DNA of 63,253 nt from sequence record AP012531, one strand, 5' to 3'. Within the stretch, counting starts at the first letter, position 1. Every line of letters starts with the position of its first letter. Positions 9,001-15,000 of this stretch are shown in pieces. The stretch is from Stx2-converting phage Stx2a_F422. Made by a program: the position numbers.

Positions 9001-12000
9001 TGAACCGCCCCGGAAATCCTGGAGACTAAACTCCCTGAGAAAGAGGTAAACAGGATGACTAAAAATACTCGTTTTTCCCCCGAAGTCCGTCAGCGGGCGA
9101 TTCGTATGGTTCTGGAAAGTCAGGATGAATATGACTCACAGTGGGCGGCAATTTGTTCCATTGCCCCAAAGATTGGCTGTACGCCGGAGACTCTGCGTGT
9201 CTGGGTTCGCCAGCATGAGCGGGATACCGGGGGCGGTGATGGTGGGCTCACCAGCGCTGAACGTCAGCGTCTGAAAGAGCTGGAACGTGAAAATCGTGAA
9301 CTGCGCCGCAGTAACGATATCCTTCGCCAGGCTTCCGCTTATTTTGCGAAGGCGGAGTTCGACCGCCTCTGGAAAAAATGATGCCACTGCTGGATAAGCT
9401 GCGTGAGCAGTACGGGGTCGGACCGGTATGCAGCGAACTGCATATTGCCCCGTCAACGTATTACCATTGTCAGCAACAGCGACATCATCCGGATAAACGC
9501 AGTGCCCGTGCGCAGCACGACGACTGGCTGAAGAGAGAGATACAGCGCGTATACGATGAAAATCATCAGGTGTACGGTGTGCGTAAAGTCTGGCGTCAGT
9601 TGTTACGGGAAGGAATCAGGGTGGCCAGATGTACAGTGGCACGTCTCATGGCGGTTATGGGACTTGCCGGTGTTCTCCGGGGTAAAAAGGTCCGTACGAC
9701 CATCAGCCGGAAAGCCGTTGCCGCAGGCGACCGCGTAAACCGTCAGTTCGTGGCAGAACGACCTGACCAGCTGTGGGTGGCTGATTTTACTTACGTCAGC
9801 ACATGGCAGGGCTTCGTCTATGTGGCGTTTATCATTGATGTGTTTGCCGGATACATCGTGGGGTGGCGGGTCTCATCGTCTATGGAAACGACATTCGTGC
9901 TGGATGCGCTGGAGCAGGCGTTGTGGGCCCGTCGTCCGTCTGGCACCATCCATCACAGCGATAAAGGCTCTCAGTATGTGTCACTAGCCTATACGGAGCG
10001 ACTAAAAGAAGCCGGATTACTGGCATCAACAGGGAGTACAGGCGACTCGTATGACAACGCGATGGCTGAGAGCATCAATGGTCTTTACAAAGCGGAGGTA
10101 ATACACCGTAAGAGCTGGAAAAACCGTGCAGAAGTGGAACTGGCCACACTAACGTGGGTGGACTGGTATAACAATCGACGATTGCTGGGAAGGCTGGGCC
10201 ATACTCCTCCGGCAGAAGCAGAAAAAGCTTATTATGCTTCCATCGGAAACGATGATCTGGCAGCCTGAGTTCACAGATAAAACACTCTCCAGGAAACCCG
10301 GGGCGGTTCATTTTGTCATATCTCACCTCAAATAAGTGGTTTGCTGCCTAATTTCATTTTCTGGCGACCAACACAAGTCACCTCGCCGTCAGTTGTTTTG
10401 ATTTCCGGTAGCCTGCCGCGTAAATGGCTACGTTTGGAAGACATACACCAGTTTCTGGTTGCTTATGTCCAAACTCATTCGCGTACACAATGGCCGCTCG
10501 CTCCAGATTGCGTCTGTATTCTTTCTGTTGCCAGATCACGTCCTGTGCCATGAACTTAATTGGCTTAGCGTCTTCTATGCGCTCAGGCGTTTCGTGAGTA
10601 CCTTTAGCCTGAATCTGCGCTCTGCTTAGAGTAGGGCGGTGTAATACTTCTGAACTTATTGCTTCTTCGCGGGCCAGTACGCCGTTAGCTAATGCCTTTG
10701 CCTTTAAACGCTCACGACGACGAGAACGTGAATTGCCTTTGAACTGAGTTCTGCGTGTCATATAGACCTCCTGATGAACTTTGGTGGTGTGGTAGGTGGG
10801 AGACCCATTTCGACCTGTTTCGGCCTACTTCAATTCGGCAATAGTCCCGCAGGCCTCGCCGCTTTACGTGCGACATATTCCCGTCCATGAACCCTTCACC
10901 ACACCCCAAAGTTCACTTTGGTTATTGCGCTTTGTCAGCGCCGTAGATTCATATTCGAATCGTTGTATATTCACCGCCCTGGTGAGTAATGCGTCCTGCT
11001 GACGACGATAATAATGAACCAATAGTTCGACATTATCAAGAACTATTGGTACGAATTTTGGTGATTTATTAACTCTACGAAGTATGATTCTGATATATAA
11101 GGAAATTTATTTTTGAAAATGTGGCTGATGAAGGTTATGCGGCAGGGATCATAACTGCATGGTTTAGCGAGTTACATCAATAAATACAATTGGTTATGTT
11201 TTTTAGGTGGGCGAACGTGAGGCAAAGAAAACCCGGCGCTGAGGCCGGGCTAGATTTTAAAGTATTTATCTTTTAGAGATGTAGATGTAAAACTTTTCGC
11301 CTTTGAAAATTTTTTGTCATCAGAAGGGCTTATGAACTCATCTTTTTTGTAGGGAACCGCTAATGCTGCATCACGTCTGCGAGGCAGCTTGCTTACTTCC
11401 TCGCGCTTTTTCATGATCAGTTATCCTTTAATAACCTATACAGTTTTGTAGGGGTACATCCTGAGGATATTGTTAAGTTCGTAGCACGCCTTTTCCGCCC
11501 ATCATCGTATAAACGAAAACCAGTAGTAGACGAATTTTCTGCGTCAAAAACTATAGACAGTATAGCGTCCCCAGACTTTTTTTGCCATTCGCATGTGCCG
11601 TTAGTTGGTTTCGTCATCTGTAGACGCCAGTCAAGAACGCCATCACTTATAGCTGAGAGATCGTTTAGTACATCTAGTACGGATTGATATCTTTCATTTG
11701 GATCTACATGAATGCATTTGTTCACTATTGTTATTAATTTTTTATGTATATGGGGAGGATACTCTTTTAATGGATAGCAGCCATTAATTATCGACTCTCT
11801 GAGTTGTTCAATCGTGCTAAATGCAGATCTTTCTCTTTCAAAATTATCATGTCCAACACACATTCTATATATGGTTAATCCTGCCTGATATATGTCATAT
11901 GTGAAATTATAATCATTTGTTGATAAAGAAAAATATTCCGGTGGCACATGAAAATGATATCCAAACTCAGGCGCAGCTCTCGATTCCTCATTGACTAACT

Positions 12001-15000
12001 GAGATAATCCAAAGTCAGATAGCATGGCCTCATTTCTGTTTGATATCATAATGTTATTAGGTTTTATATCAAAATGCATAAGACCTTTTGAGTGTATATG
12101 ATAAAGTCCACTTAAAAATTGAATGGAATACCGTATTATCTCCCTGCTTGTAAGATTATTTTTTTTCATTAATTGGTTTAGCGAACCATTATGATAAAAT
12201 GGCATGGCTATATAGATATTGCTCTCACATTGAGCAGCATACTGAACTTGCACAATATTTGGATGTGCATGTTTATAGAGAAGCCTTGCTTCATTAAAGT
12301 AGTCGTCGTGGTTAGTGTTTTCTTTTTTTTCTATTTCTTTAATCACCAAGTCATGAGCTAGGTGTCTGTCATGAGCCAGATATACTTTTGAAAAACAACC
12401 CTGTTCTTCTAGATCACTAATCCATTCGAATTCTACATCAGCTCTTTTGTATGGAGTTAGCATCCCCTTACCTCCGCAGATAGTGCAGCCAAAACAGCTT
12501 CATTTGTTTCAGTTGTAAAACCAGAATTATCGATTCCATTTATATTGCGGTGTGACTTCAATATTTCTTTATACTCGATCTCTGTTAGGTTCAATGATGA
12601 TTTCATGCCAGATTTTCTAATAGTGTAATATTTTCTTACATCACTGCTTGAAAATGCTTCTTGAATAACAGCTTCTATATAAAGGCGGTCAATGCTAAGA
12701 TTATCAGAGTTTGATTCAGTAACGCGTATGGCAGCTAATTCAACATTATATAAATTAAGAATGTCGAGGATGTTATTTCTCACATACTTTAATTTTTCTG
12801 GTGTGTCTAAGGTCGAAGGTATTTTAATAACATCAACACATTTGAGTGCAGACTCATTAGTGCAATATACAACAAAAGATGTAACTTTGGGCGCCGCTCT
12901 AACACCTAGTATTCTCATTTTTTATATCCTATTTTAGAATCAGGCCGCATCTCTGCGACCATCCATCATCCAAACGTCTCTTCACTCATCCGAAGAAGCA
13001 GCAATCCGGGTTAGCACGCACAAGCTCAAGCGCATCAGTCAGCGAAAGTTCAGTACTGTACTGATGCCATTTCATATCCTTCCGCATCCAATAGATTTTC
13101 CATCTATCCAGAGAACGTATGTACTTGATTCTTGCTGATGGCAGGATGTTTGTTTCACCTGGATTGCCCTGCCACACGGGGCGCTGTTCGCCGATATCTA
13201 TCGTTTGGTCATTGATGCTATAAACAATATCCAGTTCATTGCGGATATGTTCAGGCGGCCTTATGCTTTCAATGAATTGGTGAACTTCTTTTTTTACTGC
13301 TTGATATTCAAGGTCATTGAACGCCATCTATCCTCCTTACCCAAACGTCTCTTCAGGCCACTGGTTACCAGCTATGTGACGATGAAGTCACGAACTTTTC
13401 AGCCACTCCCTTGCCTCGATGTCATCCAGATGGCGAGATTGCTTCAGAATACCAGCTACATACTCCACCTTTGCTACTTGATGATAAGGCAACGTTATAG
13501 GCCTGTGATCCTGGTTAATGCTTGTAAATTGGTATTCTCCATCTCTGTCATAGCCAAGAACCTTAATCATGTTGTGTCCTTCAACGGTTCTGACAAACAC
13601 CTCATCACCCGGGAATACTTTGGTGTTAGGCTCAATGAGTACATATTCTCCTGATTTTATTCTGGGCCACATGCTGTCTCCTTTCACACGAAGACCAAAG
13701 GCATCTGGATCATCGCTATAAATTTTGAGCCACCCATCGCGCTCTTCGGTCATCTCGATGGCACCATCAACACCAAGAATTGCCTCACCAACCACGCGCA
13801 CTAACCCTTTTTTTAATTTGCCAACAAATGAAAGAGTATCTTCATCATTCGCTCCATTTAACGAAGTGCCGTGCTGAAGCCAAACAACATCAACGTTTAG
13901 AAATTTCGCAAGCGCATTCATTTTTTCCTGACGCGGTAAAGACTCAGCATTAAACCATTTGCTAACGCCTTTGGACGAAAGAGAAAGGGCACGGGCTATA
14001 GCCATTCCCCTACCATGTTCATCAAGACCAGCTTCTTTACAGGCTTGCGCTAGCCGCTGGGCGAATTCTTTGCGCACTTTTTCATTCTGAACCATGAGTA
14101 CGATACTAAAGCACTTGCAAAAACTTTCAGTTCAACCATAATACGTACTGAAAGTACGAAAAAGGATATTCCTATGCAAAATCTTGATGAGCCGATTAAA
14201 GGTGTCGGCATCCCTGAAGTTGCGAAGGCTTGTGGAGTTAGCGAAAGGGCTGTCTATAAGTGGCTCAAAAACGGCTTCCTCCCTAAGACTGAGTTTTTTG
14301 GGAAAACTAAATACGCATCAAAAATCGAAGAGATTTCTGGTGGCAAATATCAAGCAAGCGAAATGCTTGAAATAAGCAAAAAGAACCTTCTGGCTGCATA
14401 AGTAACACCGCTATTTTCACAATGGACATTCGTCCTACGTCGCTGACAAAGCGAGTCCCAATATATCTGACCAACTAAGGCCATATGCGTTTCCACGCAT
14501 ACCTTTCAACTAGCTATTCACTATTGGAAATCTTAAGAAATGGAACAAACAAGTTACAGCAAACTATCACAGCGAGAAATTGATCGCGCTGAAACTGATT
14601 TACTCATCAACCTGTCAACGCTTACCCAGCGCGGTCTGGCAAAGATGATTGGCTGTCATGAATCGAAGATAAGCAGAACAGACTGGAGGTTTATAGCTTC
14701 GGTCTTGTGTGCTTTTGGCATGGCATCAGACATCAGTCCGATTAGCAGAGCTTTTAAGTATGCGCTTGATGAAATCACAAAGAAAAAATCCCCGGTGGCC
14801 GCCGGGGACTCTAAGCAAATTGATATGCAATTCTGAGGGAATTACTGGATCAATCCACAGGAGTCATTATGACAAATACAGCAAAAATACTCAACTTCGG
14901 CAGAGGTAACTTTGCCGAACAGGAGCGTAATGTGGCAGATCTCGATGATGGTTACGCCAGACTATCAAATATGCTGATTGAGGCTTATTCAGGCGCAGAT

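Follow-up and report, generated by a model that had tools for sequence, protein, structure and literature searches.

The stk block between cI and N

The 63,253-nucleotide stretch of DNA from the Stx2-converting phage Stx2a_F422 (sequence record AP012531; this whole stretch is called the window, and coordinates are positions in it unless another record is named) carries a block of four open reading frames (ORFs) between the genes of the cI repressor and of N, among them stk, which encodes a Hanks-type protein kinase (Table 1). The present analysis shows that stk is the middle member of a three-gene cassette, preceded by a gene for a RuvC-fold protein and followed by one for a small basic protein, and that the fourth ORF, a DUF3024 gene, belongs to a different unit. 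The block matches phage 933W at 100% nucleotide identity over 2251 nt (NC_000924, AF125520), with like neighbours, and this 2.25-kb block is found at 100% identity in many Stx1 and Stx2 phages as well. The kinase is thus Stk of 933W, whose exclusion of phage HK97 has been published (PMC3564112, PMC3681748, PMC6356687), and both the locus and the exclusion function of Stk are already known.

A preliminary description of the block had placed it in the position occupied by rexA and rexB in lambda, which is right because cI and N flank it. Its physical account was also borne out, including the ORFs, the kinase motifs (MHFDIKPNNIMI and SDFGLS), the terminator and two tight junctions: the stop of the 153-aa ORF and the start of stk overlap by 7 nt (ATGCTAA), with GGAGG just before, and the 54-aa ORF starts 2 nt past the TGA of the kinase gene. 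On the other hand, the ORFs around stk had been called unannotated, which was mistaken, as all four are annotated in the 933W records (L0081, stk, L0083 and L0084; the annotation dates from 1999) and RefSeq names L0083 a "RuvC-like Holliday junction resolvase" and L0084 a "DUF3024 domain-containing protein". The statement that the partners have no recognisable family had to be given up for the 113-aa protein (PF11225, PDC-S43) and for the 153-aa protein (RuvC fold), and the 54-aa protein matches only PHROG 4063, where no function is assigned. Family matches were obtained for all four proteins (Pkinase at 2e-46, DUF3024 at 1e-30, and PHROGs 3875/4063/3467 at 1e-39 to 1e-91) and, together with purifying selection on the 153-aa and 54-aa ORFs, they indicate that the ORFs exceed chance. 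NCBIfam yielded no above-cutoff model for any of the four, and the Rfam scan of the kinase region detected no RNA family. The promoter scan of the same region predicted 10 sites against 10.9 in shuffled sequence; since such sites are no commoner than in shuffled sequence, no internal promoter is claimed.

Table 1. Genes and other features of the block and its flanks in the window.
Feature	Position	Strand	Remarks
cI repressor	13388-14095	minus	100% identical to 933W cI; context gene
DUF3024 gene, 113 aa (933W L0084)	12986-13327	minus	Pfam PF11225
Intergenic leader with left recombination junction (~12965-12979)	12919-12985	minus	blastn breakpoints; GC 0.418
RuvC-fold gene, 153 aa (933W L0083; "res" in phi24B)	12457-12918	minus	
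stk, 348-aa Hanks-type non-RD kinase	11417-12463	minus	Pfam Pkinase 2.2e-46
54-aa basic protein gene (933W L0081)	11250-11414	minus	PHROG 4063
Terminator tM, hairpin and T-run	11221-11251	minus	annotated in NC_000924
Mobile Stk cassette: leader, three genes (RuvC-like gene, stk and small ORF) and terminator	11224-12979	minus	blastn junctions, GC; 1.76 kb
N gene	10378-10761		flank of the block on the side opposite cI

Base composition separates the four genes. The GC content is 0.348 in the RuvC-like gene, 0.354 in stk and 0.376 in the small ORF, against 0.444 in the DUF3024 gene and 0.452 in cI, so that the earlier phrase "AT-rich four-gene unit" fits only three of the genes (GC 0.35-0.38) and leaves the 113-aa gene on the side of cI. 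Recombination junctions were located by blastn. In an IMG/VR locus with a different, 242-aa S24-type repressor and without DUF3024 (L041), homology to the window runs exactly from 12979 to 11224 at 96.9% identity. In LC616032-type Stx2a phages, whose cI and DUF3024 genes are 99.6% and 98% identical to those of the window, homology ends at 12965 and restarts at 11249, and the cargo between the two breakpoints encodes a 285-aa NYN-domain protein. In Salmonella phage ST160, c2 is followed by DUF3024 (86% identical) and by a ParA-like ATPase gene, and DUF3024 and the terminator are the sole homology to the window. The terminator tM, which is kept at the cargo junction in the LC616032-type phages and in ST160, makes up the right junction of the cassette. 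Composition, recombination junctions and co-occurrence agree that the block comprises two units, namely a 1.76-kb AT-rich three-gene cassette and a DUF3024 gene of the cI backbone.

In the terminator itself, 6 of the 8 base pairs of the stem are G-C and TTCTTTGCCT comes next, and the 933W record annotates tM as the terminator of the pM/pRM transcript. Read on the plus strand, its hairpin is again scored as a terminator (11232-11249; CCCGGCGCTGAGGCCGGG and then CTAGATTTTA), and tM may be bidirectional between the pRM and pL transcription units.

The 113-aa protein is a full-length member of DUF3024 (PF11225, residues 4-113, 106.5 bits against a cutoff of 24.9, 1.2e-30) and matches the PADLOC defence candidate PDC-S43 over residues 1-113 (4.4e-41); a match to AvrPto (E 0.07-0.15) was dismissed as chance. 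When the kinases were clustered at 90% identity, giving 36 lineages, DUF3024 lay directly upstream of the cassette in five of them and was missing there in 31, including L039-L044, whose cassettes are 97-99% identical to that of 933W. Phage database records with DUF3024 number 143, against 40 with the RuvC-like gene. In the window, a 67-nt gap without translational coupling separates these two genes, and cI and DUF3024 stay together when the cargo changes to an NYN-domain or ParA-like gene. Elsewhere, tandem DUF3024 copies lie behind a cI-type repressor (L160), and DUF3024 has DinI genes as neighbours at a prophage end, in one case with the kinase absent (L161) and in another with it present (L162). 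DUF3024 thus accompanies cI-type repressors and DinI-type morons here, and it is a cI-backbone gene or a separate moron and not a part of the kinase cassette.

These observations bear on the model of the preliminary description, in which the four ORFs cooperate in a single exclusion system and Stk has the DUF3024 protein as its sensor or regulator. The model can point to the resemblance to PDC-S43, to the shared pRM transcript and to three independent combinations in which DUF3024 lies directly upstream of the cassette (the 933W type, L047-L053 at 37-40% identity, and Erwinia L162 at 59%). However, the absence from most lineages, the unequal phage counts, the other cargo carried by the same cI and DUF3024 pair, and the base composition, junction and intergenic gap that set the gene apart make it highly improbable, and the 113-aa ORF is not retained as a kinase partner. 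Because it recurs upstream of the cassette in those three combinations, DUF3024 is instead read as a candidate marker of where a slot for variable cargo has its upstream edge. This slot, downstream of cI and DUF3024, is an exchangeable cargo site, filled by the Stk cassette or by a gene for either an NYN-domain protein or a ParA-like ATPase, and, up to tM, it looks like a hotspot for defence cargo. The NYN-domain gene (LC616032.1, L158, positions 3490-4347 there; 285 aa, Pfam 6.8e-09) is found in many Stx2a phages, and the cargo of ST160 (L157, 2981-4054 there) encodes a 357-aa ParA/AAA_31 ATPase.

The three cassette genes and their products

The association of the three remaining genes was followed in both directions. 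Starting from the 153-aa protein, the kinase gene was found directly downstream wherever DNA was available (68 IMG/VR loci, 32-100% identity); starting from the kinase, the RuvC-like gene was found immediately upstream in 74 of 77 further loci, the other three having no upstream sequence. The gap between these two genes is usually -8 to +4 nt across the 36 lineages, and a small ORF follows the kinase gene in 34 of the 35 lineages in which it could be assessed. The conservation of the partners with stk, on which the earlier proposal depended, was therefore found for the 153-aa ORF (upstream in every locus with flanking DNA) and for the 54-aa ORF, and not for the 113-aa ORF. The cassette lies downstream of several unrelated cI-type repressors, and the same order was seen in bacterial and metagenome contigs, including a Klebsiella Rac-like prophage, JGI contigs and a Logan contig on which Wadjet genes are neighbours. 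It extends to the SPbeta-like Bacillus phage SPbetaL7, in which a 167-aa protein, a 350-aa kinase 39% identical to Stk and a 60-aa protein are encoded in succession. The three genes diverge in parallel, and the dN/dS ratios (0.05-0.09 for the RuvC-like gene, 0.08-0.21 for stk and 0.10-0.33 for the small ORF) point to purifying selection on each. The three genes are thus translationally coupled, co-inherited, co-diverging and under purifying selection from Enterobacterales to a Bacillus phage.

It has to be considered, then, whether Stk acts alone and the 153-aa and 54-aa ORFs are linked passengers. The kinase defences PD-T4-6 and Stk2 have been reported as one-gene systems, neither partner has a PADLOC model, so that current tools recognise just "a kinase" at this locus, and published work credits the exclusion to Stk (PMC3564112, PMC3681748, PMC6356687). 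Against this stand the 100% adjacency in both search directions at 32-100% identity and across phyla, the conserved start/stop overlaps, the co-divergence and dN/dS values of 0.05-0.33. Adjacency kept over such a distance disfavours the passenger explanation, which we regard as decidedly improbable.

Several further occurrences of the cassette were recorded. It is carried by 226 of 5426 complete E. coli genomes. In SPbetaL7 (L156, 2986-4744 there), where the homologous cassette represents SPbeta-like Bacillus phages, all three genes are labelled hypothetical. On one metagenome contig (L002, 1-4585), SbcC/SMC-like and JetD_C (Wadjet-type) genes have the RuvC-like and kinase gene pair directly downstream of them; the setting there is that of a defence island, not of a prophage immunity region. 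In some 933W-type cassettes stk is broken. L014 and L030 (at about 4600) have lost 1 nt from GAAAAC just behind an A8 tract, close to codon 47; in L029 the truncation of stk is larger, L112 is likewise listed among the cassettes with a broken stk, and one E. coli genome (H102, SHP24) has an IS1 insertion in the gene. These broken copies may be real inactivations or homopolymer sequencing errors.

As for the kinase itself, the Pfam Pkinase model matches residues 21-260 with 158.8 bits against a cutoff of 31.7. Among 12 diverse relatives, K42, E58, H130-F-D132-IKPN137 with its K134, D150-F-G and P175-E176 are invariant, as are Y169 of the activation loop and W279 and W293 of the C-terminal domain. 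HFD stands where HRD is expected, which makes Stk a non-RD kinase, and the Gly-rich loop is degenerate; all catalytic residues are intact. The C-terminal domain of about 78 aa has no Pfam match. Leaving aside the nearest relative, L046, identity to the relatives is 13-44% in the C-terminal domain, 40-66% in the kinase domain and 32-70% in the RuvC-like partner, and the corresponding values for L046 are 71%, 84% and 85%. The C-terminal domain thus diverges much faster than the rest of the kinase.

The likeness of the 153-aa protein to RuvC came from fold comparison only, in which the protein shows a RuvC/RNase H-like fold, and PHROG 3875, also matched, bears the name "RuvC-like". Sequence and profile searches against the PDB did not return RuvC, and the matches to MinE and ALIX that they gave were dismissed as chance. 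The RuvC models of Pfam (PF02075, 14.2 bits against a cutoff of 22.2) and NCBIfam (12.5 against 163) stayed below threshold. Residues were mapped by hhalign and secondary-structure register, not by an inspected superposition, on the E. coli RuvC sequence; hhalign pairs ILGVR7 with ILGID7 and AAI-R65 with FAI-E66 of E. coli RuvC, in agreement with the predicted strand register. An exhaustive profile search collected 454 cluster representatives of the family at 50% identity, all of them stand-alone proteins of about 150-165 aa, and conservation was computed over 121 full-length representatives. R7, at the position of RuvC D7, is conserved in 99%, and the R/K65 at the position of E66 in 100%; R47, R78, E82 and E87 are each conserved in 100%, E68 in 98%, and E140 (E or D), at the position of D141, in 98%, while the position of D138 is variable. 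The canonical carboxylates of RuvC (D7, E66, D138 and D141) are therefore not present as a set, and strand beta-1 (in the first 21 residues) holds no acidic residue at all. As two of the four metal-binding carboxylates have given way to invariant basic residues, the charged site is remodelled and conserved rather than decayed, and the protein can be read as a pseudo-resolvase lacking the canonical catalytic Asp and Glu.

This bears directly on the proposal that the 153-aa protein is an active RuvC-type resolvase serving phage recombination, or a nuclease effector switched by the kinase. The fold and the database name speak for it, and non-canonical catalysis through the glutamates E68, E82, E87 and E140 would be possible. 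Nevertheless, the lack of an acidic residue in beta-1, the invariant Arg and Arg/Lys at the D7 and E66 positions, the RuvC scores far under both cutoffs and the expression of the gene in the lysogen, apart from the recombination genes, render an active resolvase improbable. "Holliday junction resolvase" is probably wrong as a functional name, and "RuvC-like Holliday junction resolvase" is likely to be a mis-annotation spread through RefSeq and the PHROGs.

By its conserved features, the small ORF is a real gene. Its 54-aa product has a pI of 10.0; the protein is basic throughout the lineages (pI 8.9-10.6), and its length is mostly 47-68 aa, apart from an outlier of 84 aa in L072. In the lineages checked, the start of the ORF and the kinase stop are -7 to +10 nt apart, and up to 23 nt in SPbetaL7. 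Its members share an N-terminal motif, [RK]R...A/L..P (PRRRDAALAVPY in 933W), and a C-terminal aromatic motif, KDKYFKI, aligned with KDNFIVE and KDNYRVI of the Firmicute-type members. In its RR(R)xAA(L)A..PY segment, the protein resembles a substrate or pseudosubstrate of a kinase.

Expression, phage trigger and candidate mechanisms

It is known that stk is co-transcribed with cI from pRM (PMC3564112, PMC3430580), and RNA-seq of a phi24B lysogen showed that stk and "res" are expressed in lysogeny and unchanged upon induction (PMC4651098). The pRM transcript from cI accordingly reads through DUF3024 and the cassette and ends at tM. Stk has little or no activity as long as cells are uninfected and becomes activated by HK97 infection (PMC3681748), which is thereby aborted (PMC3564112, PMC3681748, PMC6356687).

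In both HK97 records, erf is the only gene between genes 40 and 42, and it encodes a protein of 201 aa that matches Pfam ERF at 2e-44. In GenBank record AF069529.1 (L163, 1176-1781 there), its product is labelled "Gp40", as is that of the preceding gene, apparently in error. By gene order, gp41 is this Erf-family single-strand annealing recombinase. HK97 gp41 is said, in the work of Friedman et al. of 2011, to be the phage factor that Stk requires, and the trigger of Stk is then, by gene order, a single-strand annealing recombinase. Phage 933W itself carries Bet, and the cassette-bearing loci gave 30 matches to Bet and no Erf homologue, within short flanks and in a sample made up mostly of 933W-like phages; an avoidance of Erf recombinases by carriers of the cassette is weakly supported.

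Taking these lines of evidence together, we consider it marginally probable that the segment is a pRM-expressed accessory region of a 933W-type Stx prophage, composed of DUF3024 and a three-gene abortive-infection complex of a pseudo-RuvC sensor, Stk and the small protein; for the 153-aa and 54-aa partners, a role as sensor or regulator is plausible. The RuvC-fold protein, Stk and the small basic protein would form one complex, in which the pseudo-RuvC, probably or possibly dimeric like RuvC, would keep a nucleic-acid or phosphate-binding cleft without cleavage chemistry. As a conserved scaffold and sensor, it might couple the activity of a phage recombinase (Erf), or the branched DNA that this makes, to activation of the kinase. 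The fast-evolving C-terminal domain of Stk and the small protein would set the specificity for the trigger or restrain the kinase, for example if the small protein acted as a pseudosubstrate through its RRRDAALAxPY segment. Once active, Stk would phosphorylate host proteins, and growth would stop. A more specific proposal, put forward as speculative and unlikely at present, is that within an immune complex of three proteins it is the RuvC-fold pseudo-resolvase that senses infection, by detecting recombination intermediates or recombinase-DNA complexes made by the single-strand annealing protein of an incoming phage (Erf in the case of HK97), and that it switches on Stk, which shuts down the cell. 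If it were true, it would represent a bacterial DNA-structure-sensing kinase pathway whose conservation reaches from Proteobacteria to Firmicutes; Asp/Glu-to-Arg replacement would there have turned the active site of a nuclease into a binding site.

Several points weigh against a three-protein complex with a nucleic-acid sensor. The small ORF is absent from one lineage (L007-L010). The RuvC-like protein is the most conserved component of the cassette, which argues against direct recognition of a fast-evolving phage protein, and such strong conservation is better matched by a ligand that is itself conserved or by a role in structure only. The glutamates named above leave room for a non-canonical catalytic activity, and the identification of gp41 as Erf relies on gene order in HK97 records in which GenBank gives the label "Gp40". 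In addition, a plasmid with stk alone reportedly excluded HK97 in the work of Friedman et al. of 2011; if stk alone excludes HK97, the partners would be modulators and not essential, at least under overexpression.

A different arrangement of the same proteins would resemble a toxin-antitoxin system, in which Stk is a toxin restrained by the RuvC-like or the small protein and the phage trigger displaces or destroys that partner, with no sensing of nucleic acid. In favour of it, stoichiometric inhibitor pairs typically show such tight translational coupling, Stk stays almost inactive before infection (PMC3681748), the small protein is basic with a substrate-like RR(R)xAA motif and a PY conserved in the enterobacterial members, and the small protein and the C-terminal domain of Stk are the fastest evolving parts. 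Such a system, however, leaves the retention of a RuvC fold with an invariant, remodelled charged cleft unexplained, and the lineage without the small ORF counts against it too. We judge it rather unlikely, and it overlaps with the explanation by a pseudo-RuvC, Stk and small-protein complex rather than excluding it.

Relation to known systems and other features of the window

Stk is the abortive-infection kinase of 933W reported by Tyler and Friedman in 2004 and by Friedman et al. in 2011. Staphylococcal Stk2 (Depardieu et al., 2016) and PD-T4-6 (Vassallo et al., 2022) are likewise said to be single-gene kinase defences. The 933W system is the same gene at 100% nucleotide identity, on the pRM transcript with cI and between cI and tM; in the papers cited here, Stk is treated as a single protein (PMC3564112, PMC3681748, PMC6356687), whereas here it is one of three obligately linked genes, and its trigger comes out, by gene order, as an Erf recombinase. 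With RexA/RexB of lambda, the cassette shares the slot (from cI to tM/pL, on the pRM transcript) and the logic of a prophage-encoded abortive exclusion expressed in the lysogen. There is no kinship in sequence or domains, Rex being described as a sensor and a membrane protein and not a kinase, and no Rex family was among the Pfam, PHROG and PADLOC matches of the four proteins. The closest known counterparts of the 153-aa protein are RuvC and the RuvC/YqgF-like pseudo-nuclease domains of TEFM, Tex and Spt6; it differs from RuvC in having Arg and Arg/Lys for D7 and E66 and in being a stand-alone protein of 150-165 aa that is always linked to a kinase.

The best PADLOC and NCBIfam matches of the kinase (MAD6, PD-T4-6 and PknB) cover the generic kinase domain only and are far under the equivalog cutoffs. 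PD-T4-6 and Stk2 are, like Stk, Hanks-type kinases for anti-phage defence or abortive infection, and they differ in being single genes without a RuvC-like or small partner, whereas the stk gene is never alone here. Many PADLOC PD-T4-6 models match Stk at 1e-37 and weaker, in the generic kinase domain, and filing Stk under PD-T4-6 was considered and not adopted. MAD6 of the MADS system is the best PADLOC match of the kinase domain (6.7e-50) and also the best NCBIfam match. MADS membership was rejected: the antiphage_MADS6 model scores 122 against a cutoff of 460, and the neighbours are cI, DUF3024, N and others. MAD6 has about 610-660 aa and belongs to an eight-gene methylation-associated system, of which no other gene lies near Stk.

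In the searchable literature, which does not include the primary Stk papers, the three-gene architecture, the partner with Asp/Glu-to-Arg changes and the separation of DUF3024 are not described. Stk of 933W is a textbook case of prophage-encoded abortive infection and is borne by major lineages of enterohaemorrhagic E. coli (EHEC). If the kinase needs both partners, the activation of Stk by gp41 could be tested with three genes and a few point mutants, and a kinase-plus-pseudo-nuclease architecture would join the catalogue of defence systems.

Outside the block, an IS3-family element occupies 9055-10268, just downstream of N in the pL operon, with orfA of 108 aa, orfB of 296 aa and, at 9336-9452, an ALIL frameshift pseudoknot matched by Rfam. 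The 933W reference lacks the element at that position, and some Stx2a phages, such as L158, have it. Rfam matches were also obtained at 59923-60097, 24090-24349, 22433-22681, 7899-7957 and 62719-62807, the families among them being the sok antitoxin RNA, STnc100, AsxR small RNAs, three tRNAs, the lambda cIII thermoregulator and sRNA-Xcc1, which are typical of Stx phages and their flanks.

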